A DNA stretch of 64,000 nucleotides from assembly GCA_947623965.1 (NCBI GenBank), contig CANQIF010000011.1, forward strand, positions 6,775-70,774. Direction: 5' to 3'. This document shows, piece by piece, positions 2,875-63,640 of the stretch. The notes beneath the pieces were generated by a model, which worked only from the letters and a program-made list of their open reading frames with translations, searched no databases and had not been told where the DNA came from. The first letter of the stretch is position 1. Every line of letters starts with the position of its first letter. The position numbers and the translations under genes were made by a program. Source of the DNA: an uncultured Alistipes sp. Lineage in GTDB: Bacteria > Bacteroidota > Bacteroidia > Bacteroidales > Rikenellaceae.

Positions 2875-3495
2875 GGGCTGCGGCTTTGTGAAAGCCGCAA
2901 ATTCAAAATTCAAAATTCAAGATTCAAAATTCAGAATTAAAATGGATTCCCCGAGCGAGCCTGGCTGTATGTTCCGGTTCGGGACGCAGCCTGCGGGGCA
3001 CACGCAGATTCGGAAACGAACCGAAGCTCGGGGCGCAGCTTGCGAAGGAACGCACAAGCGGACGCGAGTAGCGGGCCTTCGCGCGGCGAAGCTGCGGCCC
3101 GCTGCGCCCTTTCGGGCGCAATTCAAAATTCAATATTCAAAATTAAAAGAGGTTTTCGGGCACGCTTGGGCATGCATTTCAACTCGGGCTGCAGCCTGCG
3201 GAGGTCGCGCACGACTGCAAGGAGTTGCGGGCCTCCGCCGCTGGGAGGCTGCGGCCCGCCGATCCCTGCGGGATCGATTTTGCTTGCGGGCAGCACGTGG
3301 CATTGTTTCGGTTCGTCAGGACGGCAGCCCGCAGCTGCCGATTTTCGCCGAGATATTTTACAGCAAACTCGACTGCACAACAGTCGGCAGCCCTCCGCCC
3401 GGGGCGGCTGCGGGCTGCCGGTCGCTGCGCGACCGAGTTTTTCAGCTGTCACTTCCACTACAACCAGCGGCTGCGGTCCGCCGATCGCTCCATGA
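2875..3495. repeat. Mosaic GC-rich palindromic repeat cluster A
   Basis: Contains TTCGGGACGCAGCCTGCGG, GCGGGCCTCCGCCGCTGGGAGGCTGCGGCCCGC, GGCAGCCCTCCGCCCGGGGCGGCTGCGGGCTGCC, small hairpins (GCGCCC-TTTC-GGGCGC, GATCCC-TGC-GGGATC) and ATTCAA octamer tracts at about 2899-2945 and 3119-3160. Fills the gap between the convergent hydrolase and response regulator genes. Confidence 0.85.
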
Positions 3496-6554: not shown

Positions 6555-7555
6555 GTTTCGGTCCGGCAGGACCGGCAGTCCGCAGTTGCTGTTTTTGGTG
6601 GACGTGGTTGTTCGCAAATTCGACGTCGCAGACGTCGGCAGCCCGCAGCTGTTGTTTTTGGTGGACTTGATTGTCTGCAAATCCGACGTCGCAGACGTCG
6701 GCAGCCCGCAGCCGCCCCCTGGCGGAGGGTTGCTCTTTATGGTCGTAGGCCCGTCCGCTCGGCTGCGGGCTTGCCTTGCGGCTGGAATCGACCTCGCAAG
6801 AGGTCGGCGGGCCGCAGCTTGGGGCGGCGGAGGCCCGCAGTTCGTAGCCGAACTTGCACGCACTCCGCAGGCCGCGGCCCGAAACTATTGCAGGCAACGG
6901 GCAAGCTTTAATGATGAATTTAGAATTCTGAATTTGCGGCTCCGCTGGGAGCCGTCTGTAGCCGCCGGTTTTGGCGGAAATGGCTGCCTGCAAATTCGAC
7001 GTCGCAGACGTCGGCAGCCCGCAGCCGCCCCCCGGCAGAGGGCTGCTTCCTCGCGTTGCTCGAAAGCAGGCCCGTCCGCTCGGCTGCGGGCTTGCCTTGC
7101 AACTGGAATCGACCTCGCAAGAGGTCGGCGGGCCGCAGCCTCCCGGCGGCGAAGGCCCGTAACTCCTTACAGTCGAGCGGAACCTTCGCAGGCCGTGGCC
7201 CGAAGATGGAGGACAAATTTGATTTAGTTTGCCTTAGCGGTTCCGAATGGAACCGTAGCGGGCCGCAGCTTCGCCCCGCGAAGGCCCGCTCCTCGCGTCC
7301 GCAAGTCCGCTCGAGCGCTTCTTCGCAAGCTGCAGCCCGCCAGCTTCGGGATTTCCGGCCTTGAAAAGACCGTGCGGGCCGCAGCCTCCGCCGGGCGGAG
7401 GCCCGCAGCTCGTGTCCCGCGGGTCCGCTTCGAGCGTGTCCTCCGCAGGCTGCGTCTCGAGCGCGCCGGTTTTTCGCAAAGCGTCAGCGGCTGCAGCTTG
7501 TTGCCGGACCCGCGAACCCGCCGCTTGCAACCCCGCCACCCGCAGGTTGCATTCC
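6555..7555. repeat. Mosaic GC-rich palindromic repeat cluster B (largest, about 1 kb)
   Basis: Repeated units of a small hairpin (GACGTC-GCA-GACGTC three times, GACCTC-GCAA-GAGGTC twice, GGTTCC-GAAT-GGAACC), then GGCAGCCCGCAGCCGCCCCC.GGCGGAGGGCTGC or GGCGGGCCGCAGC(CTCC/TTCG)...GGCCCGC, then tails GCCCGTCCGCTCGGCTGCGGGC or CTCCGCAGGCTGCG. Mostly plus-oriented. Lies between DUF349 and pyrG. Confidence 0.9.
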
Positions 7556-7561
7556 GGCGTG

Positions 7562-7598
7562 GCCTCCGACGGCCCCGATAGCCCCGGTGGCCCCGATA
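7562..7598. repeat. 9-bp periodic G/C-rich tandem tract (GCCCCGATA / GCCCCGGTG / GCCCCGATA)
   Basis: Read directly, 58 nt upstream of the pyrG ATG. Confidence 0.6.
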
Positions 7599-11492: not shown

Positions 11493-12160
11493 AAGCCCGC
11501 AACCGTCCCCTGGCTGCGGGCAGGTTTGGAGCTGGGGAACCAATCTGGCGGCGGTTCGGCTTCTTAAAGCGGTTGATATTTGCCGCAAGATCAGCCCGCA
11601 GCCGAGCGGAGTGGGCTGGTCTCGTGTTGGGGCTCGGTCCGATAGGACCGCGCGGGCGACGGTTCGGCCTCTAAAGCGGTTGATTTTTGCCGCAAGACCA
11701 GCCCGCAGCCGAGCGGATGGGCCTGCATGAGCGGACCTGCGGGACGCGAAAATGCAGCCCTCCGCCCGGGGGCGGCTGCGGGCTGCCGACTGCTGCGCAG
11801 TCGGGTTTGCTGCAAAATATCTCGGCGAAAATCGGCGGCTGCGGGCTGCCGTCCTGACGAACCGAAACAATGCCACGGGCTGCCCGCAAGCGAAATCGAT
11901 CCCGCAGGGATCGGCGGGCCGCAGCCTCCCGGCGGCGGAGGCCCGCAGCTCCTTATTGTCGCAGGCGTGCTCCGCAGGCTGCGACCCGAAACGGGATGTA
12001 TGTCTAAGTGTATCCGGTAGCCCTGCTTAATTCTGAATTTAGAATCTTGAATTTTGAATTTGCGCCCGAACGGGCGCCGTAGGCCACAGCCTGGGGCGGC
12101 GGAGGCCCGCAGTTCGTACCCGAACTTGCGCACCTCCGCAGGCTGCGTCCCGAAACGGGA
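11493..12160. repeat. Mosaic GC-rich palindromic repeat cluster C
   Basis: Same module set in both orientations (e.g. CAGCCCGCAGCCGAGCGGATGGGCCTGC, GCAGCCCTCCGCCCGGGGGCGGCTGCGGGCTGCC). TTGAAT tract at about 12028-12062 followed by GCGCCC-GAAC-GGGCGC. Confidence 0.85.
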
Positions 12161-13514: not shown

Positions 13515-13710
13515 GGGGCGCAACCTGCGGGGCATGCGTGTTCAGTTATGAACTGCGGACCTCCGCTGCCGGGAGGCTGCGGCCCGCCGATGCCTGCGGC
13601 ATCGAGGTTGTTCGGGGCAGTCCCGCAGCCGAGCGGACGGGCCTGCGACGCAGAGGAGCAGCCCTCCGCCCGGGAGCGGCTGCGGGCTGCCGGTCGCTGC
13701 GCGACCGATT
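13515..13710. repeat. Mosaic GC-rich palindromic repeat cluster D
   Basis: GCGGACCTCCGCTGCCGGGAGGCTGCGGCCCGCC, GATGCC-TGC-GGCATC, CCCGCAGCCGAGCGGACGGGCCTGC, GCAGCCCTCCGCCCGGGAGCGGCTGCGGGCTGCC, GGTCGC-TGC-GCGACC. Confidence 0.85.
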
Positions 13711-15604: not shown

Positions 15605-16242
15605 GAATTCATGATTTAAAATGAGCCGTGGTCGTTTCGCGCTTTCGGGGCGCAGCCTGAAAAGGGACCGTGCGAGCGGACCTTCGGAATGCGAATTGCG
15701 AGACTCCGCCGGGCGGAGGCTGCGGCCTGCACGGCCTTTACAGGGCCGAAATTCAAGATTCAATATTCAAAATTAAAAGAGGCTTCCGGGCACGCTTGGG
15801 CATACATTCCGGTCCGGGACGCAGCCTGCGGAGGGCACGCTCGATGCGGACCTGCGGGACGCGAGCTGCGGGCCTCCGCTGCGGGAGGCTGCGGCCCGCC
15901 GACCTCTGACGAGGTCGATTTTATCATTAGACAAGCCTGCAGCCGAGCGGATGGGCTTGCGACGGATAGGAGCAGCCCTCCGCCCGGGGCTGCAGCGCCC
16001 TGGCGGGCGCAAATTCAAAATTCAAGATTCAAAATTCAGAATTTTATTCAGGGCTACAGCCTGCGGGCTTCCGAGGAGGGCAAGTGGCTTGCTATGTCCA
16101 AGAACGGCGAATTTCGGGACGCAGCCTGCGGAGGGCTGAAATCTCGTGCTGCTCGAAAGCTGGTCCGTCTGCTCGGCAGCGGGCATTTGCAGTGGTTCAA
16201 TCGTGTAGTGATTGGCGGGGCTTTCCGCAAGCTGCGGCCCGA
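15605..16242. repeat. Mosaic GC-rich palindromic repeat cluster E
   Basis: TTCGGGGCGCAGCCTG, CTCCGCCGGGCGGAGGCTGCGGCC, and ATTCAA tracts at about 15745-15780 and 16010-16050. Units are mostly in reverse orientation. Confidence 0.85.
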
Positions 16243-16265
16243 TGATTACAAAGCCGGTAAAAATT

Positions 16266-16294
16266 AAAGAGCCGTCGTTGTGGACGGCTCTTTT
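16266..16294 (-). terminator. terminator of the lipocalin-like lipoprotein gene
   Basis: Perfect 11-bp stem AAAGAGCCGTC / GACGGCTCTTT with a 6-nt loop. A/T runs on both sides, so it could act bidirectionally. Confidence 0.7.
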
Positions 16295-16305
16295 CAGGCA
16301 ATATC

Positions 16306-16710
16306 TTAATTGCTTTTCCTGACTCTTACATCGAGTGTGTCGGATCCTTCTTCAATGGTTATTTCTGCGGTCGTATCGGTCATGGACTTAACCTTGTATG
16401 TAAGATACAACTCTCCGCTTACGTAGGTTTTGATCGTCATCCCATTTATAGTATAGGTCCCGTGGCCTGTACCAAAAGCACCTTGTCCGTAATAGCTCCC
16501 GTCGTTATAAAAAGTGATGGAAAAGCCGAACTCGGCACTATATGGATATTTGGTAATGTCGATCCAGGTTCCATTGGCATAAATCGCTGTCCCTTCCCAG
16601 GTGCCTGCGATCCGGTCTTTGGGGATGGATTCGCCGTCGTCTTTCGAGCAGGCTGTAAATAGAAATCCGACAGCTGCACAGAGCAACAAAAGATGAAATA
16701 ACTTTTTCAT
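16306..16710 (-). CDS. small lipocalin-like lipoprotein
   Basis: Signal peptide with lipobox MKKLFHLLLLCAAVGFLFTAC, then IAGTWEGT and a beta-rich Gly/Tyr/Thr composition. Sits in an AT-rich islet. Confidence 0.6.
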   Translation of the reverse strand: MKKLFHLLLLCAAVGFLFTACSKDDGESIPKDRIAGTWEGTAIYANGTWIDITKYPYSAEFGFSITFYNDGSYYGQGAFGTGHGTYTINGMTIKTYVSGELYLTYKVKSMTDTTAEITIEEGSDTLDVRVRKSN

Positions 16711-17119
16711 TTTGTTTGTGTTTTTTTTAGTTAAACTTATTTTGCTCCTCGTTGAGCCTTTGCCGACAGATGGCAACCGTTTAACAAAAAAAGAAACGTG
16801 GGTTATAGCTTACTGCAACGAGGTACGACCAAGCACCCACAAAAACATAAGCACAACCCACGCCATACGGCGCGGGCATTCAGTGTGCCTATTGGTGTTT
16901 TTGCTTCTAAAATTGGTCGTTTTCGTTGCAAGCCAATAGCCTAAATGCCATCAAAAATGTATCGCCTATTCGGCGATACGCTTACAAAAGTAGTAAAAAA
17001 GTTTGGTATTTTACCATATAAATATTCCTATTTTTGAAACAAGGAGCATGGGAGGCAGCGTATTTATACAAAAAAGGAGGTTGTGAAAATACGTAAGATC
17101 CTTTTGCCGATTAGGCAGC

Positions 17120-17915
17120 AAGGGGCGCAGTGTACGCCCGAAAGCGCGCATATTCAAAATAAGAATTATAACTCAGGCAGCAGCCTGCGGACCTCCGCTG
17201 CGGGAGCCTGCGGCCCGCTCGGCCCGGCCCAAACTTGAGACCAGTCCGCAGCCGAGCGGACGGGCTTGCGACGCAGAGGAGCAGCCCTCCGCCAGGGGGC
17301 GGCTGCGGGCGGCTGCGCCCATGAAGGCGCAATTAAAAATGAAGAATTAAAAATGATGCTTGGGCCGCGGCTTGCGAAGGCCCGCAACTCGCGTCCGCTT
17401 TTGCGTCCGCTCGTCCGTGTCCTACGCAAGCTGCAGCCCGATCAACCCGATATGCCATATTGAATTAGAATCTTGAATTTCGGCCTTGCAAAGGCCGTGC
17501 GGGCCGCAGCCTCCCGGCGGCGGAGGCCCGCAGCTCGCGTCCCGCAGGTACGCTTCGAGCAGGCCCTCCGCAGGCTGCGACCCGAAAATACTGGACAAAC
17601 CTCGCCAATTTTGAATGATGAATTTGCCCCCGAATGGGCACGGCAGTCCGCAGCCGCCCCCGGGCGGAGGGCTGCAATCTCGCGCTGCTCGAAAGCAGCC
17701 CAGTCCGCGTGGCTGCGGGCTTGTCAGTTAACGATACGGCCCATCGCGTGGTGGCGGGGCTGTCCGGACAACCTCGATACCGCAGGCATCGGCGGGCTGC
17801 CGCCTGGGGAACGGCGGAGGCCCGCATCTCGCGTCCCGCAGGTCCGCTTCGAACGTGCTCTCCGCAGGCTGCAGCCCGAATTCGCGGGTTGGGCGGATCG
17901 TGATCGCTGCCGCAG
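17120..17915. repeat. Mosaic GC-rich palindromic repeat cluster F
   Basis: Same modules in both orientations, with AT tracts at about 17150, 17330, 17461 and 17610. Confidence 0.85.
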
Positions 17916-19784: not shown

Positions 19785-19895
19785 CGCCTCGCCGCGAGGG
19801 GCGGTTCGCAGCCGCGCGAAGGGACGCATCGACCGCAGGAAGTTGCGGCCCTTCGCCCGGGGGGCGGCTGCGGGCCGCCGACGCTGCGCGTCGTT
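19785..19895. repeat. Mosaic GC-rich palindromic repeat cluster G (short, inside the ara operon)
   Basis: CGCCTCGCCGCGAGGGGCG, GCGGCCCTTCGCCCGGGGGGCGGCTGCGGGCCGCC, GACGC-TGC-GCGTC. Lies between the araA stop and the araB start. Confidence 0.75.
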
Positions 19896-21511: not shown

Positions 21512-22165
21512 TCCATCGCGTTGCGATTGGCGGGCCACAGTCGCAGGTCGGCGTCGAGGGTTTTGTGGCAAACTCGATTGCGGAGCAATCGGCAGCCCGC
21601 AGCCGCCCCCGGGCGGAGGGCTGCTCCTCTGCGTCGCAGGCCCATCCGCTCGGCTGCGGGCTGGTCCGGAGTTAAGATCGGTCCATTAGGCGCAGCCGCA
21701 CTTGGCGGAAGGTTGCATCCTCGCGCCGCTCGTGCAGGCCCGTCCGCTCGGCAGCGGGCAGGTCCGGGGTTAGGATCGGTCCGTCAGGACCGAGCGGGCC
21801 GCAGCTTCGCCCCGCGAAGGCCCGCTGCTCGCGTCTGCAAGTCCGCTCGCGCGTGCGCTTCGCAAGCTGCAGCCCGAGTGGATTTGTCGCACTTTATCGA
21901 TCGCGTCAGCGTCAGCGACGGCGGGTCGCAGCCGCTGGTCGGCGTCGAGGCGTTTTGCTGCGAACTCGATTGCGAAGCAATCGGCAGCCCGCAGCCGCTC
22001 CCGGGCGGAGGGCTGCTCCTCTGCGTCGCAGGCTCATCCGCTCGGCTGTGGGCTGGTCCGGAGTTAAGACCGGTCCGTCAGGACCGAGTGGTCCGCAGCT
22101 TCCGCCTGGCGGAGGCTTGCCGTCCGTACCCGAATCTCCGTGCCACCGCCCGGCTGCGCCCCGAT
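21512..22165. repeat. Mosaic GC-rich palindromic repeat cluster H (inside the ara operon)
   Basis: Same modules. Includes two roughly 139-bp near-identical direct copies (21547-21684 and 21938-22076) and GGTCC-GTCA-GGACC hairpins. Confidence 0.88.
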
Positions 22166-22180
22166 AGTCCGGCCCCTAAC

Positions 22181-22876
22181 CTACTTCTTGCTTTGCCCGT
22201 AGTAGGCGTTGGCGCCGTGCTTGCGCGAGTAGTGCTTCTCGATGAGCAGGTCGTTCATCGTGAGATTCGGGTTGATGAGGTAGGCGGCGAAGGCCATCTT
22301 GGCCACCTGCTCCATCACGACGGCGTTGTGCACCGCCTCGTGGCCGTCCTTGCCCCAGGCGAAGGGACCGTGGTTCTTGACCAGCACGCCCGGCGTGTGC
22401 ATCGGGTTCATCCCCGCCTCGACGAAGCGGCGGACGATCACCGTTCCCGTGTGCTTCTCGTATTCGCCCATCTGGTCGGCCGTCATGTCGGCCGTGCAGG
22501 GAATGGCGCGGTGGAAGTAGTCGGCGTGCGTCGTGCCGATGTTCGGAATGTCGCGCCCCGCCTGCGCCCACGCTACGGCGTAGGTCGAGTGGGTGTGGAC
22601 GATGCCCCCCACCTCCGGGAAGGCCTTGTAGATTTCGAGGTGCGTCGCCGTGTCGGACGATGGGCGCAGCGCCCCCTCGACGATGCGGCCTTCGAGATCG
22701 ACGACCACCATGTCCGACGGCTTCATCTCGTCGTAATCCACCCCGCTGGGCTTGATGACGACGAGCCCCCGCTCGCGGTCGATGGCCGAGACGTTGCCCC
22801 ACGTGAAGATCACCAATCCGTGTTTCACAAGGTCCAGATTCGCCTGGCAGACTTGTTCTTTGAGTGTTTCCAACAT
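22181..22876 (-). CDS. araD: L-ribulose-5-phosphate 4-epimerase
   Basis: Class II aldolase/adducin fold: [35 protein letters not shown]. 231 aa. Confidence 0.9.
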
Positions 22877-22910
22877 AACGTGTTTCTTTTGACTGTTTCT
22901 GTTCGTTCCC

Positions 22911-23038
22911 GGGCCGCCGCCGGCCGCTTCCGTTGACCGCTCTGCCGGTCGCTCCCGTTGGTCGCTTCCGCCGGCCGCCGCCGGCCACTCTGCCGATCGC
23001 TTTCACCGGCCGCTTCCGCCGCCGCATGCCTTTCTGCC
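22911..23038. repeat. 12-13-bp periodic C/G-rich tandem tract (consensus about GGYCGCTYYCSYY, about 10 units)
   Basis: Units read by hand: GGCCGCTTCCGTT, GACCGCTCTGCC, GGTCGCTCCCGTT, GGTCGCTTCCGCC, GGCCGCCGCC, GGCCACTCTGCC, GATCGCTTTCACC, GGCCGCTTCCGCC. Lies 35-160 nt upstream of the araD start. Confidence 0.7.
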
Positions 23039-23073
23039 GGCTATCGCAGCACCCAAGCACCGGCCGACCCGGA

Positions 23074-23116
23074 TGAAAAAGGCCGTCCGTTCGGCGGAGG
23101 AGCCGCCGAACGGACG
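23074..23116 (-). terminator. Rho-independent terminator after the SSS transporter gene
   Basis: Perfect 14-bp stem CGTCCGTTCGGCGG / CCGCCGAACGGACG with a 5-nt loop. On the minus strand it is followed by GCCTTTTTC. Confidence 0.7.
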
Positions 23117-23123
23117 CAGCCTG

Positions 23124-25058
23124 TTACCAAAGGGTATAATAGAGTATCACGAGGATCGCCACCACGCCGAGAGCGCCCCAGTTGAAGGCGGCGTCCGAGC
23201 GGAATACGGCAAGGTCGATCTTCACGGCCTTCGGATCCTGCACCGGATCCTTGGCGTTCGACCGGAGATAGATGGTGATCGTCACGAAGAGGGCGCAGAG
23301 GAAGAAGAAAGCCTCGAAGCCGTAGTTGCGCATCGTGGGTTCGATCACGCCGATGATGCCGCAAACCAAGCTGACGAGGGCGCCGACCGTCGTTACGCGG
23401 CTCCAGAAGAGCTGCGTCTTCACGGTGTGTTCGTCGAGGCGGTCGGCCGGGACGGTCTTGCGGCTGCGCAGCGACATCCAGATGAAGATCGTCGCCAGGG
23501 CGATGAAGACGTAGCCCATGCGGAGCAGGAAAGGCACATCGGGCAGCAGGAACTTGAAGAGGATCGAGAAGGCGAAGGTGCCGATGGCCGCCACAACGGC
23601 AGCGGCGCCCGAGGCGCGCTTCCAGAGCAGGCCGAGACCGAAGATCACCACGACGCCCGGATAGACGAAGCCCGAGTACTCCTGGATGATCTGGAAGGCC
23701 TGGTCGGCGGCTCCCATGATCGGGTAGACGGCGATGAGGGCCAGCAGCAGGGCGGCAACCGACGTGAGCCGGCCGACCTGCACGAGCTTCGTGTCCGAAG
23801 CCTCCTTGTTGATGAACTGCTTGTAGATATCCATCGTGAAGATCGTTGAGGTCGAGTTGAACATCGAGGCGAGCGACGAGATGACGGCGGCGGCCAGCGC
23901 GGCGAACGAAAGCCCCTTGACGACGACCGGCGTGAAGTTGCGGATCAGGAAGGGATAGGCGTCGTCCGAACGGGTGATCTCGCCGGCCAGCGAGGCGTAG
24001 AGGTCGGGCTGCTGCGTGTAGATGTAGTAGGCGCAGACGCCCGGAATGCAGACGATGAAGGGGATGAGGATCTTGAGGAAGGCGGCGAAGATCATGCCCC
24101 GCTTGGCCTCCTTGAGCGACTTGGCGGCCAGACCCTTCTGGATGATGTACTGATTGAAGCCCCAGTAGCCGAGGTTCGTGAGCCACAGCGCGCCGACGAT
24201 CACCACGATGCCCGGGATGTCGAAGTAGGGATCGGAGGTGACGGCGGGGTAGAGGTCGGCATTGCGCGCCACGACGAGGTTGAAGTGCGTGTCGCCGGGG
24301 ACTGTGCCGAGCTTCGAGACGATCTCGCTCAGGGCGCCGAGGGCGCCGCCGTCGATGTGGACCTCGCTGGCGATGAAGTCGAGGGCGAAGTAGGCCGTGA
24401 TGAGGCCGCCGCCCACGAGGAAGGTCACCTGCATCACGTCGGTCCAGGCCACCGAGGCCAGACCGCCGTAGATCGAGTAGAGACCGGCGACGATGAAGAG
24501 GATCAGGATGATCATCATGAGGGTCATATCGATCGACATGCCGAGAAACATCGCGGGTGCGGCCGGGATGCCGAGGATCTGCTTGATGGCCAGGGCGCCG
24601 AGCCAGGCTACGGAGGTGAGGTTGATGAAGACGTAGAGGAAAAGCCAGAAGATCGAGAAGGAGAGGCCCACGCCCCAGTTGTAGCGCTCGCGCAGGAACT
24701 GCGGGATGGTGAAGATCTTGCGTTCGATCATGACGGGCAGCAGGAACTTGCCCACGACGATCAGCGTGGCGGCGGCCATGAGCTCGTAGGCCGCGATGGC
24801 GATGCCCGAGGCGTAGGCCGATCCGGACATGCCGATGAACTGTTCGGCCGAGATGTTCGCGGCGATGAGCGAGGCGCCCACGGCCCACCAGGTCAGCGTG
24901 TTGCCGGCCAGGAAGTAGTCGGTCGAGGATTTTTCCTTGCCATCCTTGCTGCGCGAGAGGAAAAAGCCCAGGCCGATCAGCAGGATGATGTAGAGTACGA
25001 AAATCGCGTAGTCGATCATCGCGAATCCGTTGTTCTGCAAAGCTTCAATCAGGTTCAT
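23124..25058 (-). CDS. sodium:solute symporter (SSS family, Na+/sugar cotransporter-like)
   Basis: 644 aa with about 14 hydrophobic segments, an SSS-type N-terminus (YFLAGNTLTWWAVGASLIAANISAEQFIGMSG), in an arabinose operon context. Confidence 0.8.
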   Translation of the reverse strand: MNLIEALQNNGFAMIDYAIFVLYIILLIGLGFFLSRSKDGKEKSSTDYFLAGNTLTWWAVGASLIAANISAEQFIGMSGSAYASGIAIAAYELMAAATLIVVGKFLLPVMIERKIFTIPQFLRERYNWGVGLSFSIFWLFLYVFINLTSVAWLGALAIKQILGIPAAPAMFLGMSIDMTLMMIILILFIVAGLYSIYGGLASVAWTDVMQVTFLVGGGLITAYFALDFIASEVHIDGGALGALSEIVSKLGTVPGDTHFNLVVARNADLYPAVTSDPYFDIPGIVVIVGALWLTNLGYWGFNQYIIQKGLAAKSLKEAKRGMIFAAFLKILIPFIVCIPGVCAYYIYTQQPDLYASLAGEITRSDDAYPFLIRNFTPVVVKGLSFAALAAAVISSLASMFNSTSTIFTMDIYKQFINKEASDTKLVQVGRLTSVAALLLALIAVYPIMGAADQAFQIIQEYSGFVYPGVVVIFGLGLLWKRASGAAAVVAAIGTFAFSILFKFLLPDVPFLLRMGYVFIALATIFIWMSLRSRKTVPADRLDEHTVKTQLFWSRVTTVGALVSLVCGIIGVIEPTMRNYGFEAFFFLCALFVTITIYLRSNAKDPVQDPKAVKIDLAVFRSDAAFNWGALGVVAILVILYYTLW

Positions 25059-26626: not shown

Positions 26627-28627
26627 ATGAATGCTCGTGATGTCAGAATCGATCCCTGCATTTCGGGGATGGCACAGCTGCTGTACGGCGGATTTACCTT
26701 TCCGCACGGCCGAACGACCGTGATCGCCGTGGCAGGCGGTCCGAATTGCGAAACATCCTTTTTCGGGCTGCAGCTGCTTTACCGGCTCGGCTTGCAGTTG
26801 GGCGTGACGCCGCAATACTGTTCGGCGATGCGCGACGTCTCCTTCTCGGAGGATTTGATCCTCGATATGACGATCTCTTCCTGCATCCGGCAGATGACGC
26901 AGCGGTACATCCAGAACGGCATGTCCGACGCGCTGCGGTTGGTGGATTTCTTTTTCGATGTCGATCATCTTTCGCCGCTGATCGACCTGCAGGCTCTCGG
27001 CATCGCCGATCTGAAACGGAATGCCGACGAGATGCTTTGCAAGGGGATCCTGCATTACAGCAATCGGACGAACGCCCTGCATATCCGAACGCTGAAAGGT
27101 ATCAGCGATGAGGAAAACCTGCTTTTCAGGCGGCGCTACGAAACGCTGAACGACTATTTTGCGTTCGGGGATCCCGCAGAGATCGAACGGATCAACCGAA
27201 GCCTCGACCGACAGTGCGGCCGGATCGATATCATTCCGTATACCTGTGCGGCCCAGGAACCGGACGCGTTCGGCCCGAAAGTCCTGTCGGCGGTCTCCGC
27301 CTTCGAGCCGGATCCGACGACACGGGACTACTACGGCCGGCTGCTGAAGTACATGAAGGCGCTTCGGGAGATGCCGGTCGGACGCAGCGACGCGCAGGTG
27401 GTCATTCTGGTGCTCGATGACCGGAAGCAGGTGCCGGAGCATTTGGCCGATATCGTGATCCGCATGGAGAATATCGTCTCATCGGACTATTCGATCCAGC
27501 AGCTGCGGATCGACAAGTGCGACATCCAGGGTGCCAAATTGGGCTGGCATCAATACAAGCGGCGCGATTACGGCATCGAGATCTATCCGAGCCTTCATAC
27601 TTATTTCGCCAAGCGCCGCTATCTGGAACGGGCGCTGGCCTACACCCATTCGAACGTCGTGACCGATACGTTCCAGGAATATCTGGAGCACAGCCGGAGA
27701 CATCACCACGCAACGATCCGTTACGACCACTACGATGCCCACGACCGCTATCTGGAGGCGATGTTCCCGGACGATTTCCTCGAATATACGCCTGAGGAGG
27801 TTTTCAACATGATTCTGCTCGACAGCGAACGGAACGAGGAGGTCGTGTCGGATCGGAATGCGGACGAACGCTCGTCTCGCGAGATCCGCTTCGGCGGCGG
27901 AACGGGCGAGGTGACGGGTATCATCGGCGAGCCCAATACCTTCAAACGGTTCCTTGCCTACGGCAGCATGTTCAGCACGGCGGTAAGGGACGAGCACACA
28001 ATGATCGTTACGCTGCACCAGGAGGTTCCCGTGATTTGCCGGCAGCTGCCCTGCCCGGCCTGCATCCGCAACCGCCGGAAGCGAAGCCGCTGCGAGAGCT
28101 GCCTTGAACACATCCATTTCATGAACTTCAATATCGGCTGCATCACGCCCAGCGAGTTCATCCACTATTTCGTGCAGCAGATCGACGTGCCGTTCCGGGA
28201 CGGGAAACGGGTCCGGCGGATTATTCTGGACAATCTGCAGGTCGTCGACTTCTGCTTCCCGCTGTTGAAGCAAAGCGAGCTCTTTCTTCCTGCGCTCATG
28301 ACCGTGTGCCGCGAACGCAACATTTCGCTCTATCTGTTGTGCGACAAGCACGGCGAACTGGTGGATGCCGTGCGGACGCTGGTGGACAACATCATCTGTA
28401 CGGAGCGGACCGGGGAGAAGGAATTGAAGCTCTACGTCGAACGTTTCGCGCGCTACAATCTTTCGCCCAGCAAAATCTATTGTGCCGAGATCGAACCTGT
28501 GAAAGAGCTGTTTTCGTGCCGCGAGATCTATCACCACGACGACCAGCGCACCATTCAATTCGAACTGGAGCCCGATGTGATCGAGGCGTGCCCGACGCAC
28601 ACGATGGGAGATTATTGGAACCGATAA
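26627..28627 (+). CDS. 666-aa protein with two KaiC/RecA-like domains, both with degenerate P-loops, and a Cys cluster in domain 2; family unknown
   Basis: Domain 1: RIDPCISGMAQLLYGGFTFPHGRTTVIAVAGGPNCETS (KaiC-type xGxxxLDxLLGGGxxxGxxxLIxGxPGxGKT pattern with GKT lost), Walker-B-like VVILVLDD, and distal LRIDKCDIQGAKLGWHQYKRRDYGIEIYP. Domain 2: GGGTGEVTGIIGEPNTFKR, RRIILDN, ISLYLLCDKHG, LKLYVERFARYNLSPSKIYCAEI. Cys cluster CRQLPCPACIRNRRKRSRCESC. Confidence 0.6.
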   Translation: MNARDVRIDPCISGMAQLLYGGFTFPHGRTTVIAVAGGPNCETSFFGLQLLYRLGLQLGVTPQYCSAMRDVSFSEDLILDMTISSCIRQMTQRYIQNGMSDALRLVDFFFDVDHLSPLIDLQALGIADLKRNADEMLCKGILHYSNRTNALHIRTLKGISDEENLLFRRRYETLNDYFAFGDPAEIERINRSLDRQCGRIDIIPYTCAAQEPDAFGPKVLSAVSAFEPDPTTRDYYGRLLKYMKALREMPVGRSDAQVVILVLDDRKQVPEHLADIVIRMENIVSSDYSIQQLRIDKCDIQGAKLGWHQYKRRDYGIEIYPSLHTYFAKRRYLERALAYTHSNVVTDTFQEYLEHSRRHHHATIRYDHYDAHDRYLEAMFPDDFLEYTPEEVFNMILLDSERNEEVVSDRNADERSSREIRFGGGTGEVTGIIGEPNTFKRFLAYGSMFSTAVRDEHTMIVTLHQEVPVICRQLPCPACIRNRRKRSRCESCLEHIHFMNFNIGCITPSEFIHYFVQQIDVPFRDGKRVRRIILDNLQVVDFCFPLLKQSELFLPALMTVCRERNISLYLLCDKHGELVDAVRTLVDNIICTERTGEKELKLYVERFARYNLSPSKIYCAEIEPVKELFSCREIYHHDDQRTIQFELEPDVIEACPTHTMGDYWNR

Positions 28628-28639
28628 AAGAGCAAAACG

Positions 28640-29728
28640 ATGAAAAACAAACGGAAAAATTGGTGGCAGGTGCATTGGGAAGACATCTTGGCCACGTCGG
28701 TGCCGGCGTTGATAACGCTTGCCGCCTCGATCGTGCAACTCTCGTTCGGGAGAGAGGGCGGCTCGTTCAAGTTAGACTGGACCTTGCTGAATTACGGAAT
28801 GCAGACGCTGTTCATCGTCATCACGCTCTTCGTTTTGATTCGCTGCTGGTCCAAAGTGCGGCGGGATGTGGAGCAGGAGGGGGCGATCAAACGCTACCTG
28901 CGGGTCTATTGCCTCCTGCCGGATGAGGGAGACCGCGCGCTGGCGCTCTCCTATTCGGTCGTTTCGGGAACGGTCCGGCAGTTCTTCTGGGCCTGGTCGG
29001 CCATTTGGGTGCTTTGGCTGGCCTATTATTGCGGATCGCTGATCGAGTATTCCTATTCGCTGTCTCTTTCGGAAGAGTGTCGGAAAGGGTTCTGTTATTG
29101 TTTCGGCATGCGGAACATGGCGACCTATCAGAATACCCTCAATTTCCTGAGCAGCGCCTTTCTGTATGCGATTTACCTGATTCTGAACGAGGCGACCGTA
29201 AAACCCGAGGAGCGTCACCAGACGAAGAACATCCTGCTGCACGGCTTGATTATCATAGCGGTGCTGGCGCTGTTGTTCTTCGTGCCGACCATGATCGCGC
29301 AGACGGCCTGCCCTGCGCGGTACAACGGCATCATGCTCTACGTATCGCTGTTGCTGAGCATCTTTTCGACTGTGACGTTTACGTTGATTCTGGGAAAGCT
29401 GAACAGCCCCTATCTCCAGTTCCCAGGCTGGATGATTTCGGGCCTGTACATCTATGCGGTCGTACAAGCCTATGAACCGCTCACGACGATCTATGCGTCG
29501 TATTTCGATCTCTTAATAGAAAATGATAAATTGTGCGGGTTGTCTTGTATGGCGGATTTGGTACAGAAAGTCCTGCCTTGGATCACGCTTGCCGGAAAGA
29601 TGCTGCTGATGCTGGCCCTGCTCTGGATCTCGGACGGACGCAGGCTGGTTTTCTACATCATCCACCAGAGCCTCTCGCTGACCGAAGCACCGCGCATGCA
29701 GAAACGGCTGGATCAACATCTGTCGTAA
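28640..29728 (+). CDS. 362-aa integral membrane protein (about 8 hydrophobic segments), family unknown
   Basis: Starts 12 nt after the upstream stop. Hydrophobic stretches include LATSVPALITLAASIVQLSF, MQTLFIVITLFVLIRCW, FFWAWSAIWVLWLAYYCGSL, FLSSAFLYAIYLIL, LLHGLIIIAVLALLFFVPTMI, IMLYVSLLLSIFSTVTFTLIL, WMISGLYIYAVVQAY, LPWITLAGKMLLMLALLWI. Confidence 0.6.
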   Translation: MKNKRKNWWQVHWEDILATSVPALITLAASIVQLSFGREGGSFKLDWTLLNYGMQTLFIVITLFVLIRCWSKVRRDVEQEGAIKRYLRVYCLLPDEGDRALALSYSVVSGTVRQFFWAWSAIWVLWLAYYCGSLIEYSYSLSLSEECRKGFCYCFGMRNMATYQNTLNFLSSAFLYAIYLILNEATVKPEERHQTKNILLHGLIIIAVLALLFFVPTMIAQTACPARYNGIMLYVSLLLSIFSTVTFTLILGKLNSPYLQFPGWMISGLYIYAVVQAYEPLTTIYASYFDLLIENDKLCGLSCMADLVQKVLPWITLAGKMLLMLALLWISDGRRLVFYIIHQSLSLTEAPRMQKRLDQHLS

Positions 29729-32002: not shown

Positions 32003-32007
32003 GAGTG

Positions 32008-32055
32008 CAAAAGTAGCGCTTTCTCTGCAAAGGCCGCGCATCGTTTGCAAAGGTA
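32008..32055 (-). promoter_or_regulatory. two copies of AGCGCTAC(C/T)TTTGCA carrying -7 boxes (TACTTTTG, TACCTTTG) upstream of uvrB
   Basis: On the plus strand, CAAAAGTA at 32008-32015 and CAAAGGTA at 32048-32055. The proximal box ends 6 nt from the ATG, so that transcript would be near-leaderless. Confidence 0.4.
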
Positions 32056-32114
32056 GCGCTTCGTGCCCGAAAAACGAAACGTTCGAAATGAAAAAACGGG
32101 AGCGGGGACGATTC

Positions 32115-32169
32115 GGGGCTTTTGGGGTTATCGGGGTTATCGGGGTTATCGGGGCTTTTCGGGGCGGTG
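32115..32169. repeat. 9-bp tandem repeat GGGGTTATC x3 flanked by GGGGCTTTT-type units
   Basis: GGGGCTTTT GGGGTTATC GGGGTTATC GGGGTTATC GGGGCTTTTC GGGGCGGTG, read directly. Lies 113-167 nt upstream of uvrB. Confidence 0.8.
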
Positions 32170-32239
32170 CGAGAGGAAGGACGGCGGATAGAGGGTGGCG
32201 AGGTGTAGTGGAGAGTTGCAGGCGATGGAGGGGGTCGCC

Positions 32240-32836
32240 TGGAGGTGGCGGAGGACCTGCGGGACGCGAGTTGCAGGGCCTCCGCAGGCTGCGCCCCGAA
32301 TTTTGTGTGATTTTGAATCTTGAATTTTGAATTCTGAATTGCGCCCAAAGGGCGCTGCAGCCCGCAGCCGCCCCCGGGCGGAGGGCTGCTCCTCTACGTC
32401 GCAGGCCCCTCCGCTCGGCTGCAGGCTTGACTCGAGTTTGGATCGCTCCGTGGGGCCGTGCGGGTCGCAGCCTCCCGGCGGCGGAGGCCCGCAGTTCATG
32501 ACTGAACATGCGTGCGCTCCGCAGGCTGCGTCCCGAACTGGAATATAAGTCCAAGCGCATCCGAATGCAATTTTGAATCTTGAATTCTGAATCATGAATT
32601 TGCGGTTCCGGCAAGGAACCGCAGCGGGCCGCAGCCTCCGCCCGGCGGAGGCCCGCAGTTCGTATCCGAACTTGCGAGCACTCCGCAGGCTGCAGCCCGA
32701 GCATAATTTTGAATTTTGAATTTTGAATTTGCAGCTTCGCCCGGCGAAGGCCCGCTTTTCGCGTCCCGCAGGTCCGCTCGAGCGTGTCCTTCGAAAGCTG
32801 CAGCCCGAATGGGCGCTGCAGCCCGCAGACTTCGCC
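32240..32836. repeat. Mosaic GC-rich palindromic repeat cluster I
   Basis: Same modules, with TTGAAT tracts at about 32300-32345, 32565-32600 and 32700-32740, each followed by a hairpin (GCGCCC-AAA-GGGCGC, GCGGTTCC-GGCAA-GGAACCGC, GCAGCTTCGCC-CG-GCGAAGGC). Confidence 0.88.
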
Positions 32837-33054
32837 GAAGATACTTCGTCTCGGCAATGCTCAAATAAATTTGGCATTGCGCTCGACTTATTATTATCTT
32901 TGGCTTCGCCTTAGATACTCCGTCTCGGCAGAATCAAGCTGACGCTTGTTTCTGCTCTCGACTTTTCGTATCTTTGACTTCGTCGAAGATACGCCGCCTC
33001 GGCAAAATGCAAATAAATTTGCTTTTGCCCTCGGCTTATTCGTATCTTTGTAGC
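32837..33054 (+). repeat. 74-bp unit repeated three times in tandem, each copy carrying an exact TATCTTTG -7 box
   Basis: Units are about 32837-32910, 32911-32984 and 32985-33054. All start (G/T)(A/T)AGATAC...CGTCTCGGCA and end ...CTCG(A/G)CTT(A/T)T..TATCTTTG. Boxes at 32895-32902, 32969-32976 and 33043-33050 are exactly 74 bp apart, and the last is 25 nt from ATG 33076. Confidence 0.8.
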
Positions 33055-35177: not shown

Positions 35178-35930
35178 GCTGGCTGCGGCCGCTGATTGAT
35201 GCCGAGGCGATCATGTGTAAATTCGGTCGCGCAGCGACCGGCAGCCCGCAGCCGCTGGTTTGGTGGAAGGGGTTTTGCTGTAAGCTCGACGTTGCAGACG
35301 GCGGCAGCCCGCAACCGTCCCCGGGCGGAGGACTGCTCCTTTGTGCAGCAGGCCTGTCCGCTCGGCTGCGGTTTTTTTGCAAGGAATCAATCGCATAGCG
35401 ATTGGCGGGCCGCAACCTGGGGGCGGCGGAGGCCCGCAACTCCTTATAGTCGTGCGCGCCTCCGCAGGCTGCGTCCCGAATCCGATTAGTTAAGCACATT
35501 TAATTTTGAATCTTGAATTTTGAATTCTGAATTTGCGCCCGAATGGGCGCGGCAGCCCGCAGCCGCCCCCGGGCGGAGGGCTGCTCCTTTACGTCGCCAC
35601 GCCCATCCGCTCGGCTGCGGGCTTCTTCCGCATTTGGGAACGGTCCGATAGGACCGTGCGGGCCGCAGCTTCGCCGCGCGAAGGCCCGCATCTCGCGTCC
35701 GCATGTCCGCTCGTGCGTGCGCTTCGCAAGCTGCGTCCCGAACCCATAGGAAACGCGCCTAATTTTGAATCTTGAATTTTGAATGATGAATTTGCGCCAG
35801 AATGGGCGCCGCAGCCCGCAGCCGCCCCCTGGCGGAGGGCTGCTCCTTTATGTCGCAAGCCCGTCCGCTCGGCTGCGAGCTGGTCCCGTGTTTGGGAACG
35901 GTCCGATAGGACCGTGCGGGCCGCAGCCCT
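35178..35930. repeat. Mosaic GC-rich palindromic repeat cluster J
   Basis: GGTCGC-GCA-GCGACC+GGCAGCCCGCAGCC..., TTGAAT tracts at about 35490-35535 and 35758-35795 followed by GCGCCC-GAAT-GGGCGC, and GGTCC-GATA-GGACC hairpins. Confidence 0.88.
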
Positions 35931-39804: not shown

Positions 39805-40295
39805 CCGGGCCGGGTCCGAGTTCGGGAACGGTCCGTCAGGATCGAGCGGGCCGGAGCTTCGCCCCGCGAAGGCCCGCTGCTTGCGTCTGCATTTGCGTCC
39901 GCTCGTGCGGTCGCTTCGCAAGCCGCGGCCCGAGTGCGGATTTTGCAGGTGGTAAGTGGGTTTGTAGATGAATTCGATCGCGCAGCGATCGGCAGCCCGC
40001 AGCCGCCCCCGGGCGGAGGGCTGCAATTCGCGTCCCGCAGGTCCGCTTGTGCAAGCCCGTCCGCTCGGCTGCGGGCTTGGCTCGGGTGGAATTCGGCCTT
40101 GAAAAAGGCCGGGCGGGCCGCAGCCGCCCCCTTGGCGGAGGGCTGCTCCTCCACGTCGCAAGCCCATCCGCTCGGCTGCGGGCTTGGCTCGGGGAAAACT
40201 CGGCCTTGAAAAAGGCCGGGCGGGCCGCAGCCTCCGGCGGCGAAGGCCCGCAGCTCCTTGCAGTCGAGCGGAACCTTCGCAGGCTGCGACCCGAA
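39805..40295. repeat. Mosaic GC-rich palindromic repeat cluster K
   Basis: GGTCC-GTCA-GGATC, GGGCCGGAGCTTCGCCCCGCGAAGGCCCGC, GATCGC-GCA-GCGATC+GGCAGCCCGCAGCCGCCCCCGGGCGGAGGGCTGC, and GGCCTT-GAAAA-AGGCC hairpins twice. Confidence 0.85.
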
Positions 40296-43293: not shown

Positions 43294-43299
43294 GGCGTT

Positions 43300-44304: not shown

Positions 44305-44333
44305 GGGCGGCGGATCGTTTCGTGCGAAGCTGC

Positions 44334-44423
44334 GGGTACCCGCGGATCGGTGGGCACCCGCGGATCTGTGGGTACTCGCAGAACGGCGGGCACCCGCAGA
44401 ATGGTGGATTCCCGCTGGCGGCG
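44334..44423. repeat. 18-bp tandem repeat, about 4.5 units (GGGYACYCGCRGAWCKGY)
   Basis: GGGTACCCGCGGATCGGT 44334-44351, GGGCACCCGCGGATCTGT 44352-44369, GGGTACTCGCAGAACGGC 44370-44387, GGGCACCCGCAGAATGGT 44388-44405, then a decayed unit. Located in the 166-bp spacer between the binding-protein and permease genes. Confidence 0.85.
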
Positions 44424-44470
44424 GCCCGCCGCCAGAACGGGGCCGGCGAGCGGCAGGGGGTTGTTCACGG

Positions 44471-47891: not shown

Positions 47892-47904
47892 GGTTCGTCG
47901 TTCG

Positions 47905-55024: not shown

Positions 55025-55650
55025 CGATTGCGCAGATCGGCGGACTACGGCTGCAATTGCGATCAAAATGTTTGCTGACAAAATCGGTCCGTCAGGACCG
55101 GCAGTCCGCAGCCGCCCCCGGGCGGAGGGTTGCTCTTTTGCGTCGCAGGCTCATCCGCTCGGTTGCAGGCTCGTCCCGAGTGTAATTGATGCCGTAGGCA
55201 TCGGCGGGCCGCAGCCTGGGGCGGCGGAGGCCCGCAGTTTGTTGCCGAACCTGCGTATCTCCGCAGGCTGCAGCCCGAGGGCGAATTGTATTGGGTGTAG
55301 TAGTTCTTTTTTAATTCTTCATTTTTTCATTTTTTTAATTTGCGTCCGAACGGGCGCCGTAGCCCGCAGCCGCCCCCGGGCGGAGGGCTGCTCCTTTGCG
55401 TCGCAGGCTCATCCGCTCGGTTGCAGGCTCGTCGGAAGATTCGCTGCTGCAGCCAATGTTGAATATTGAATGATGAATTGCGCCCGCAGGGCGCAGCGGG
55501 CCGCAGCTTCGCACGGCGAAGGCCCGCCACTCGCGTCCGCAAGTCCGCTCGTATGCGATTCCTTCGCAAGCTGCGTCCCGATTGGCAATTTTGAATTTTG
55601 AATGCTGAATTTGCGGCTCCGGCAAGGAACCGCAGCGGGCTGCAGCCCGC
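55025..55650. repeat. Mosaic GC-rich palindromic repeat cluster L
   Basis: GGTCC-GTCA-GGACC+GGCAGTCCGCAGCCGCCCCCGGGCGGAGGGTTGC, GATGCC-GTAG-GCATC+GGCGGGCCGCAGCC, and AT tracts at about 55305-55345, 55455-55480 and 55585-55615. Confidence 0.88.
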
Positions 55651-58445: not shown

Positions 58446-58619
58446 GAGCGACAAAAATACATCATCGGACGAAATTTCGGAAATGAATCCCGGAAAATCG
58501 GGATGCAAAAAGGCTTTCGATGCAAAAAAGATACCCAAGGCCAGAGGGTTGACGGCAGAATTTCGGGCGGCGGACGGTGCGGCGTTTCGGCGGGTTGTAG
58601 CCGCCGGTTGTGGTTGAAA

Positions 58620-59285
58620 TGCCTGCCGGCAGAATCGGTCACATAACGACCGGCAGCCCGCAGCCGCCCCCGGACCGCGGGCTTGTCTCGAGTTTGGGGC
58701 GGTCCGCCAGGACCGTGCGGGCCGTAGCCTCCGCCGGGCGGAGGCCCGCAGTTCGTTGCCGAACTTGGCGTGCGCTCCGCAGGCTGCGACCCGAGTGTCA
58801 TGCTGAATCTTGAATTTTGAATGCTGAATTTGCGGCTTCGCTGAAGCCGCAGCCGCCCCCGGGCGGAGGGCTGCTCCTCCACGTCGCACGCCCGTCCGCT
58901 CGGCTGCGGGCTTGTCTCGAGTTTGGGGCTGTCCGTCAGGACTGTGCAGGCCGCAGCCTCCCGGCGGCGGAGGCCCGCAGTTCGTCGAACTTGGCGTGCG
59001 CTCCGCAGGCTGCAGCCCGAGTGTAATTTTGAATTTTGAATTTTGAATCTTGAATTCTGAATTCTAAATTTGCGCCCGAACGGGCGCAGCGGGCCGGAGC
59101 TTCGCCCCCGCGAAGGCCCGCATTTCGCGTCCGCTTCTGCGTCCGCTCGAGCGGTTTCTTCGCAAGCTCCGACCCGAATTCAGAATTATTTTTATATCTT
59201 CCTTCTTCACAGTTCCGGCAGGGTCCCAAAGCAGCCTGCAGCTCGCACCCGAACCTGCGCGCCCTCCGCAGATTGCAGCCCGAAA
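58620..59285. repeat. Mosaic GC-rich palindromic repeat cluster M
   Basis: Two consecutive roughly 240-bp composite units: TTGAAT tract, hairpin, CCGCAGCCGCCCCCGGGCGGAGGGCTGC ... GCCCGTCCGCTCGGCTGCGGGC ... GTCC-GTCA-GGAC ... GGCCGCAGCCTCCCGGCGGCGGAGGCCCGCAG ... CTCCGCAGGCTGCAGCCCGAG. These are followed by a GCGCCC-GAAC-GGGCGC + GGGCCGGAGCTTCGCCCCCGCGAAGGCCCGC unit. Confidence 0.9.
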
Positions 59286-63124: not shown

Positions 63125-63640
63125 ATCGGTCGCGCAGCGACCGGCGGGCCGCAGCCGCTGGCTTTGGTGGAAATGTCTGCCTGCTGGATCGGTCCGTCAG
63201 GACCGGCAGCCCGCAGCCGCCCCCTGGCGGAGGGCTGCATTCCCGTGTCCCGCAGGTCCGCTCGTGCTGGCCCGTCCGCTCGGCTGCGGGCTGGTCTCGC
63301 GTTTGGGCCGGTCCGTCAGGACCGAGCGGGCCGCAGCTTCGCCCTGCGAAGGCCCGCTGCTCGCGTCCGCAAGTCCGCTCGTATGCGGTCCCTTCGCAAG
63401 CCGCGGCCCGAACCGAGAATAGACTCAATCGTGCCACAGCGATCTTATTTAATTTTGAATGCTGAATTTGCGGTTCCGAAAGGAACCGCAGCGGGCCGCA
63501 GCCTCCGCCCGGCGGAGGCCCGCAGTTCGTACCCGAACGTGCGAGCGCTCCGCAGGCTGCGTCCCGAATACACTGGGCAGCCGCACTCCATTTTGAATTG
63601 GGCCCGAACGGGCGCAGCGGGCCACCCGCAGCCCGAACCT
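63125..63640. repeat. Mosaic GC-rich palindromic repeat cluster N
   Basis: GGTCGC-GCA-GCGACC+GGCGGGCCGCAGCC, GGTCC-GTCA-GGACC+GGCAGCCCGCAGCCGCCCCCTGGCGGAGGGCTGC, a TTGAAT tract at about 63440-63475, then GCGGTTCC-GAAA-GGAACCGC. Confidence 0.88.

Follow-up and report, generated by a model that had tools for sequence, protein, structure and literature searches.

What are the GC-rich palindromic sequences that fill most of the larger intergenic gaps in a 64,000-nt stretch of DNA from an uncultured gut Alistipes sp. (contig CANQIF010000011.1, positions 6,775 to 70,774; this whole stretch is referred to as the window), and how did they come to lie between ordinary chromosomal genes (pyrG, yidC, tpiA, lysS, araB, araA, araD, uvrB, PFOR, a B12-uptake operon, and others)? 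An earlier note, made from the sequence alone, had proposed a dispersed modular palindromic repeat family in 14 clusters totalling about 8 kb, built around a conserved core, and both points are borne out. Specifically, the core motif RGCRGSCCGCAGC has 33 exact matches in the window, all within the 14 clusters, as opposed to 0.09 expected from 100 dinucleotide shuffles, and a direct-repeat search of the window returned at least 60 families made from cluster sequences. Using nhmmer profiles for types A and B/C that were seeded from window sequences, we identified 56 non-overlapping units (23 of type A and 33 of type B/C), all of which are intergenic and none of which lies outside the clusters. 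The units are ~100 nt in size, GC-rich and non-coding; the core units amount to 4.3 kb (6.7% of the window) and the 14 clusters to 8,334 nt (13%). The proposal that the arrays underlie the long intergenic spacers also survived testing. The clusters do not result from misassembly: the same arrays recur in independent metagenome assemblies, and one public contig among these matches the window at 100% identity over 20.7 kb. We conclude that the hairpin repeat arrays are a real, non-random family.

Each unit consists of a small perfect hairpin, a fixed GCAG or GCGG, and an imperfect hairpin of 70–85 nt. The small hairpin is 15–21 nt long, with a loop that is most often GCA. Of 110 units taken from three species, 90 have a perfect stem of 5 bp or more (7 bp being the commonest length) that abuts the core, compared with 34 of 2,200 shuffles, in line with the short hairpin listed in the earlier note. 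The 5' arms of these hairpins comprise 37 different sequences, and the stem covaries freely. The tetranucleotide after the 3' foot is unpaired and reads GCAG in 61 and GCGG in 46 of the 110 units. The ends of the long hairpin are inverted repeats of 11–13 nt that have CCGCAGC in common, and its folding z-scores lie mostly between -2.8 and -8.7, a type C example reaching only -1.7. The tails that had been listed as a separate module are complementary to the cores and fold with them into these long hairpins.

The types differ in the long hairpin. In type A, a core hairpin of 33 nt, GCAGCCCGCAGCCGCCCCCNGGCGGAGGGCTGC, is combined with a variable centre and with a tail, CCGCTCGGCTGCGGGCT, that is complementary to this core; the terminal inverted repeats of type A are AGCCCGCAGCCG and CGGCTGCGGGCT, and across 45 copies in three species the core shows essentially no variation. 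Type B, GCGGGCCGCAGC(C/T)T ... CTCCGCAGGC(T/C)GCGNCCCGA, folds as a single long imperfect hairpin, and type C has TTCGC...GCGAA in place of the type B CTCCGC...GCGGAG with the tail altered to match. The ends of types B/C, CGGGCCGCAGCYT and ARGCTGCGNCCCG, covary; across subfamilies and species, three pairs of the outer stem do so (CG/UA in 14, GC/AU in 15, and CG/AU in 5 sequences). The modules listed in the earlier note are thus all present, but the list was incomplete, lacking conserved linkers between units and a type D unit, in which a GCAGYCCGCAG core is followed by a T-rich segment and which has a period of 63 nt together with its hairpin. Tracts of TTGAATN serve as linkers; they had been described as octamers, but their period by Tandem Repeats Finder (TRF) is 7, and only the tract at 55307-55335 has period 8. 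With H denoting the small hairpin, the units typically combine into composites (H-D, H-A, H-B/C, or heptad tract + H-A + H-B/C) that are repeated two to three times per cluster. Both orientations occur, as had been noted, but with the qualification that the units of a cluster run head to tail in one direction, except that each of the three mixed clusters has a single switch, head to head.

The focal cluster, cluster 2 (6555..7555), illustrates this arrangement. It lies between a DUF349 gene that ends at 6540 and pyrG, which starts at 7656, and all of its units are on the plus strand in the order H-D, H-D, H-A, H-B, degenerate heptad tract, H-D', H-A, H-B, AT tract, H-C, H-B/C, and degenerate tail. 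Two type D units (6575-6618 and 6638-6681), recognised by the profile, in the direct-repeat search, and by TRF as a 63-nt tandem (6573-6712), flank the small hairpin at 6621..6637; the latter reads CGACGTC-GCA-GACGTCG, is directly followed by a GCAG tag, and has a stem that is also found in another Alistipes species. A type A unit (6701..6771) and a type B unit (6807..6881), both supported by profile and fold, come next, followed by units assigned by profile to type A (7014..7092), type B (7128..7202), type C (7258..7339), and type B/C (7374..7460).

Our working hypothesis, which we consider moderately probable, is that these are lineage-specific small palindromic non-coding DNA repeats similar to repetitive extragenic palindromic (REP) sequences, bacterial interspersed mosaic elements (BIMEs), REPINs, and MITEs (miniature transposable elements with inverted repeats), which are copied non-autonomously and subsequently remodelled by recombination. 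It pools five features, namely the tagged variable hairpin, the covarying inverted ends, the intergenic placement, the lineage-specific amplification, and the rapid turnover. Like REPs, which are short imperfect palindromes of 20–40 nt, the small hairpins are intergenic and in high copy, and the units are non-coding elements of less than ~500 nt with terminal inverted repeats, as MITEs are.

Distribution and turnover between strains

In a pattern scan of one genome per species, which gives lower bounds on species range and copy number, almost all of the matches listed were in Alistipes/Rikenellaceae. Five pattern matches in other phyla are due to chance, because the profiles had no match there. 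In the related Alistipes MGBC125940, the uvrB gene of which is 90% identical in DNA to that of the window, 203 kb of sampled sequence contained 39 type A and ~60 type B/C matches on at least nine contigs, and a second species, CAZVGH01, also carries units; the family is, therefore, present in at least two other Alistipes species. A genus-level relative, a human-gut Rikenellaceae genome, has one solitary hairpin with a type A core directly past a stop codon. Some hairpin stems are common to several species and others are amplified in a single species. Near the window itself, a further 2-kb cluster with seven units lies 6–8 kb beyond its end, upstream of a cas9 gene; this type II gene (HNH, RuvC_III) is located at 22001-23528 of strain loci L055/L056, about 8.5 kb to the right of the window end. 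Dispersal was thus seen in the related genome and just beyond the window, the source genome being covered in part. The family is not confined to one region, and a purely local duplication was rejected because copies are present on many contigs of other species.

The earlier author did not recognise the modules, and neither do the collections that we searched. At gathering thresholds, Rfam 15 matched only a cobalamin riboswitch and two tRNAs in the window and, at E values up to 5, gave only chance-level matches to Histone3 and IRES_mnt in the clusters; a known RNA family was, therefore, rejected. Two pattern scans of viral contigs gave no matches, and cluster 10 had no blastn match in PLSDB or INPHARED, and an element carried by a phage or plasmid was rejected, no counterpart having been found in these viral, plasmid, and phage collections. 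A search of the accessible literature did not turn up any account of repeats of this kind from Alistipes or Rikenellaceae. A pattern scan of JGI metagenomes says nothing on habitat because only three short contigs matched.

Comparison of orthologous intergenic regions between strains revealed gain and loss of whole units. Relative to a 99.4% identical strain, genes have 0.52% mismatches and no indels in 14.7 kb; the clusters have 2.75% mismatches and 13 gap events in 2.9 kb. Relative to a ~98% identical strain, genes have 0.93% mismatches and the clusters 16% with 43 gap events, a figure that includes a replaced array upstream of uvrB where the alignment is partly forced. Unit content differs between strains in five of six shared clusters. 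In the 99.4% identical sister strain, the focal cluster contains three rather than two type D units and lacks ~690 nt corresponding roughly to window positions 6880-7570, i.e. six or seven units. In cluster 4, a 98-nt strain indel corresponds to one hairpin and D unit and is bounded by a 26-nt direct repeat, and a ~45-nt patch of linker and hairpin is swapped with both arms changed together. One unit of cluster 8 is exchanged for another type between identical small hairpins; cluster 5 has a deletion bounded by shared CCCTCCGC sequences and a tract whose length varies by two heptads. The events are, in sum, unit gain or loss between short direct repeats, replacement of linker–hairpin patches, heptad slippage, and microhomology deletion.

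The clusters are also places at which gene order changes. Cluster 1 is a synteny breakpoint in other strains, and synteny breaks coincide with repeat clusters at positions 1-900 of strain loci L040, L043, and L045 and downstream of the hydrolase gene in L050 and L053. In some strains, a gene of the PDDEXK_4 nuclease family lies upstream of uvrB, and cluster 9 there consists of a single B unit. Between species, little synteny is shared among the loci compared for empty sites.

Mobile or island-like elements were also observed. In some strains, an integrative mobilisable element with tyrosine integrases, relaxase, MobC, Toprim, and DUF5906 (L057 1-9427; L058 484-6335) occupies the cluster 13 site upstream of PFOR, with one B unit left. 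In one strain, a phage- or island-like block at L050 1375-6056, by the epimerase gene and near the tRNA-Thr position, has four repeat units inside and encodes a DnaB helicase, DUF6291, HTH_39, and an Arm-DNA-bind_5 integrase fragment. Among the synteny breaks between strains, there is also one at which the gene ending at window position 2868 has other genes after it (TPR protein, deaminase, AspRS).

Copying, recombination, or transcription

If the working hypothesis is correct, the units would be non-autonomous DNA, copied by an enzyme whose gene lies at another place in the genome, most probably a RAYT-type Y1/HUH transposase recognising the tag and hairpin on single-stranded DNA. Homologous recombination and gene conversion between copies would subsequently assemble the mosaic arrays and rearrange them. 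Any consequences for the host, such as hairpins located at the 3' ends of mRNAs, heptad tracts that resemble promoters, hot spots of recombination, and spurious open reading frames (ORFs), would be secondary and not the reason for the existence of the family. We favour RAYT-type copying because the design of tag plus hairpin is that of a Y1/HUH target and because Bacteroidetes have their own RAYT subclass, 2.6, which is flanked by atypical structures without GT[AG]G (PMC6006769); the supplements of that paper do not mention Alistipes.

Several observations weigh against this hypothesis. Consistent with the earlier note, no transposase, integrase, or HUH protein was detected among the window ORFs tested. 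Neither an HUH...Y motif nor a RayT homologue was found in ~0.46 Mb of Alistipes DNA, a small part of any genome, by a motif regular expression and phmmer with E. coli RayT on all ORFs of at least 80 aa, and no Y1 transposase was found in the 10 kb beyond the window on each side. In the strain comparisons, we saw no unit cleanly inserted at an empty site. Neither the solitary unit of cluster 7 nor the strain indels have an evident target-site duplication, and recombination among copies already present can account for every strain difference seen. Only four of 110 units have GT[AG]G near the hairpin foot, and the conserved unpaired 5' GT[AG]G of REPs is absent. The units run head to tail, unlike BIMEs, in which orientation alternates regularly, although defined linkers are present. 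Finally, both the invariance of the 33-nt type A core and the resemblance of the heptad tracts to Bacteroidetes promoters would also fit a selected function.

Coming from a small part of any one genome, the enzyme negatives are weak evidence either way. No insertion sequence with the unit ends was seen in the Alistipes DNA searched. A protein homologue search with RayT did not reach Bacteroidota, only Enterobacteriaceae being among the 120 matches listed, and in the PDB only the E. coli RayT protein was found.

Because recombination alone can explain all strain differences seen, a model without a transposase is a serious rival, even if we regard it as rather unlikely. Here, the arrays would be satellite-like DNA that spread by host recombination, slippage, and gene conversion from a few ancestral intergenic hairpins. 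Each strain difference examined is bounded by repeats or is a patch replacement, the transposase searches found none in the DNA covered, the clusters coincide with synteny breaks and mobile-element insertion sites, and the solitary hairpin with its type A core in the human-gut Rikenellaceae genome could be the ancestral state. However, recombination alone does not readily account for the seeding of copies on many contigs, in dozens of intergenic regions that are unrelated; there are solitary units, as in cluster 7, that have kept intact ends; the species-specific amplification of hairpin variants suggests active copying; and the inverted ends covary like those of transposons.

A second rival is that the units are structured-RNA genes, in which the TTGAATN tracts would be promoters for a transcript comprising the small hairpin with at least one long hairpin, with the variable hairpin as a specificity module. 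The tracts are the sole feature that hints at transcription of the arrays. All 16 share polarity with the units downstream of them; they mostly begin with TAATTTTG, matching the -7 box TAnnTTTG, and finish with TGAATTTG with TTTG 19 nt upstream. One of them, a tract of 6.7 heptads in cluster 13 (59025-59071), includes one exact match to the promoter consensus TTTG-N19-TAAATTTG, and real promoters in the window (tRNA-Thr, tRNA-Ala, and galM) fit the Bacteroidetes consensus TTTG-N19-21-TAnnTTTG. The strong folds, the covarying stems, the invariant core, and the independence of array orientation from the adjacent genes, the arrays being found in sense, antisense, convergent, and divergent settings, would suit such genes as well. 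Yet the conserved A of the -7 box is missing from most tracts at the position closest to the hairpin. Tracts occur in a second species and are absent from 26 loci of MGBC125940, and because units are present there without them, the proposed promoter is dispensable. Moreover, unit number and order vary among near-identical strains, unlike those of conserved RNA genes.

Nor does the folding point to one transcribed strand. The stems of the small hairpins are almost all Watson-Crick paired, and wobble pairs are not enriched among the 16 stems with one mismatch (five G.T, three A.C, and eight other). For type A, the two strands give folds of equal quality; for type B, the opposite strand gives the better fold in 73 of 84 copies even though types A and B are co-oriented, and the strand preferences of the two types are opposite. 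A strand-specific RNA signal was rejected because neither the comparison of sense and antisense stability nor the wobble counts gave a coherent strand. That arrays lie sense or antisense to genes, cluster 8 being antisense between araA and araD, likewise speaks for the DNA level. We conclude that a DNA-level reading is preferred over a single transcribed RNA strand, and we consider it unlikely that the units are RNA genes. By a bolder proposal, the arrays would be a functional, programmable hypervariable system lying among housekeeping genes, either of two-hairpin RNAs expressed from heptad promoters or of non-coding cassettes recombined by a dedicated enzyme at the tagged hairpins; this we hold to be decidedly unlikely.

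The placement of the arrays relative to genes bears on a third rival, in which they would be host regulatory elements under selection that work between the transcription units of a high-GC Bacteroidota genome, whether by terminating transcription, stabilising 3' ends, or insulating. At eight of 13 bordering gene 3' ends, the cluster starts 7–30 nt past the stop codon (the other five gaps are 71–165 nt), and 70–100 nt before start codons are left free. This pattern would suit regulatory elements, but it is also typical of tolerated selfish DNA. The hairpins are very stable in either orientation, the solitary copy in the genus-level relative lies directly past a stop codon, and REPs in E. coli stabilise upstream mRNA (summarised in PMC3733652). 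On the other hand, TTTT follows within 15 nt downstream in only six of 52 units, and the units were, therefore, rejected as canonical intrinsic terminators. A single hairpin would suffice, yet an array can have up to ~10 units including type D (cluster 2); arrays lie within apparent operons (araD-araA and DUF349-pyrG) with no strict promoter consensus after them; and copy number differs freely between strains. We consider this explanation very doubtful, and non-autonomous copying followed by recombination continues to be our preferred account of the family.

The remaining clusters and their surroundings

The other 13 clusters vary in unit content around the same plan. Cluster 1 (2875..3495, minus strand) lies between convergent genes and has three B units, one truncated A unit, and heptad tracts at 2899-2943 and 3120-3148. 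Cluster 3 (11493..12160) is mixed, with A(-) followed by B(+) B(+) head to head and a heptad tract at 12029-12061, between the convergent yidC and tpiA. Cluster 4 (13515..13710, minus) consists of B and A between lysS and tpiA. The strain-variable cluster 5 (15605..16242, minus) has C, C, and A with one partial A in plus orientation and heptad tracts at 15749-15778 and 16011-16043. Cluster 6 (17120..17915), also mixed, runs B(-) A(-) and then C(+) C(+) A(+) C(+), with the head-to-head junction over an AT-rich tract. Between clusters 5 and 6, the window has a low-GC island (16000-17000; 46% compared with about 63% elsewhere), which may be a foreign insert and which carries a small lipocalin-like gene (16306-16776, minus).

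Cluster 7 (19785..19895, minus), between araA and araB, is a solitary hairpin with an A/C hybrid unit. Cluster 8 (21512..22165, plus) fills the araD-araA spacer, antisense to both genes, with D A A' C and then D A B. Cluster 9 (32240..32836, plus) contains A B B C and three heptad tracts between the divergent uvrB and M49 peptidase genes. At its edge (32828-33050), TRF detected a 74-nt unit in three tandem copies, at least two of which have a full Bacteroidetes-type promoter, TTTG-N21-TATCTTTG, at 32870 and 33018, with a third TATCTTTG at 32969; this tandem looks like a multiplied promoter ahead of the M49 peptidase gene. In the uvrB 5' region (32006-32164), there are two short tandem repeats, one of 20 nt in three copies and one of TCGGGGTTA in 5.7 copies.

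Cluster 10 (35178..35930, plus) lies between convergent genes in the order D D A B, heptad tract, A C, heptad tract, A, and cluster 11 (39805..40295, plus) in the order C A A C. Cluster 12 (55025..55650, plus), between convergent genes, contains A B A C and heptad tracts, including the one with an 8-nt period. Cluster 13 (58590..59285, plus) has D, a truncated A, and B A B C B between the divergent M16 peptidase and PFOR genes, and cluster 14 (63125..63640, plus), downstream of PFOR, has D A C B.

Gene callers in public assemblies annotate proteins of 176–263 aa in the clusters (e.g. 243 aa and 263 aa), among them calls at window 32146-32877 (minus) and in strain loci at L040 10746-11537 and L055 19658-21882, none of which has a Pfam match. 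In agreement with the earlier suggestion that the arrays generate pseudo-ORFs, cluster ORFs fail a test of GC content by codon position (GC3) that real genes pass. On both grounds, the clusters were rejected as real coding regions, and these protein calls are very likely false genes made by the repeats.

A few features of the window lie apart from the repeats. A G-rich 15-nt tandem repeat, GCCGGGGCTGGGTTA, occurs in 6–8 copies at 414-580 between the end of a pfkB-family kinase gene and tRNA-Thr. Two adjacent genes at 26627-29728 (plus), encoding 666 and 362 aa, have a lower GC content of 55–58%, no match in NCBIfam or PADLOC, and only a sub-threshold KaiC-like Pfam match. The cobalamin riboswitch (105.7 bits; 51086-51290, minus) lies ahead of the apparent B12-uptake operon, the genes of which (42535-51178, minus) encode a PKD-domain protein, DUF5074, a TonB-dependent receptor, a periplasmic binding protein, a FecCD permease, and an ABC ATPase.

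Significance and relation to known repeat systems

In a common gut genus, these repeats take up roughly one-eighth of a region that holds housekeeping genes, cause false protein calls in public annotation, and mark synteny breaks and mobile-element insertion sites. Because the arrays differ between strains that are 99.4% identical in genes, they could be very fine strain markers in metagenomes. The tagged variable hairpin together with the hairpin with covarying ends is a concrete substrate with which to seek the poorly known RAYT-like enzymes of Bacteroidetes, and the family allows a possible role of the promoter-like heptad tracts in transcription of the arrays to be tested.

REP/BIME-type families are textbook features of Proteobacteria. 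The local density of the Alistipes arrays, 13% of the window, greatly exceeds the value of roughly 1% or less that is usually quoted for E. coli REPs. The earlier note had likened the arrays to REP/BIME or BOX elements; this likeness holds for the architecture and fails for the GT[AG]G tag and the alternating orientation. Like the REPs and BIMEs of Enterobacteria and Pseudomonas, the Alistipes units are GC-rich imperfect palindromes that occur intergenically in high copy near gene 3' ends, have an unpaired tetranucleotide at the hairpin foot and stems that vary by subfamily with pairing kept, and form mosaics with defined linkers. In contrast to them, the 3' foot carries a GC[AG]G tag instead of GT[AG]G at the 5' foot, the small hairpin is joined to a second hairpin of 70–85 nt, the units run head to tail instead of alternating, the linkers include heptad tracts, the host belongs to Bacteroidota, and no RAYT was found in the DNA searched.

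With the REPINs and their RAYTs (Bertels and Rainey 2011, PMC3116915; subclass 2.6, PMC6006769), the family shares long two-arm hairpins with conserved ends, near-identical copies around master sequences, and lineage-specific amplification, and the Bacteroidetes RAYT subclass, too, is reportedly tied to structures that lack GT[AG]G (PMC6006769). It differs from them in the additional small hairpin, in the tandem arrays, and in that a partner transposase was not found in the DNA searched. BOX elements of Streptococcus pneumoniae (PMC3049150) and the Correia, ERIC, and RUP MITEs resemble it in combining a few boxes in fixed order and variable copy number and in being intergenic elements of ~100–300 nt with strong predicted folds and terminal inverted repeats. 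However, there is no sequence relation, they belong to another phylum and base composition, the BOX layout is A-Bn-C, and neither a target-site duplication nor a parent insertion sequence was found for the Alistipes units.

Closer in taxonomy are the BrickBuilt elements, reportedly (Klein et al. 2015) a composite MITE of ~1 kb in low copy with long terminal repeats and a tract of short tandem repeats. They share with the Alistipes family the Bacteroidota host, a composite non-coding structure with a short tandem-repeat tract, and variation between strains. In contrast, the BrickBuilt elements, mentioned for Porphyromonas gingivalis in PMC5771137, have no array of tagged hairpins and no sequence similarity to the Alistipes units. 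Taken together, these comparisons place the Alistipes family among interspersed palindromic repeats, set apart by its two-hairpin unit, head-to-tail mosaics, heptad linkers, Bacteroidota host, and very high local density.

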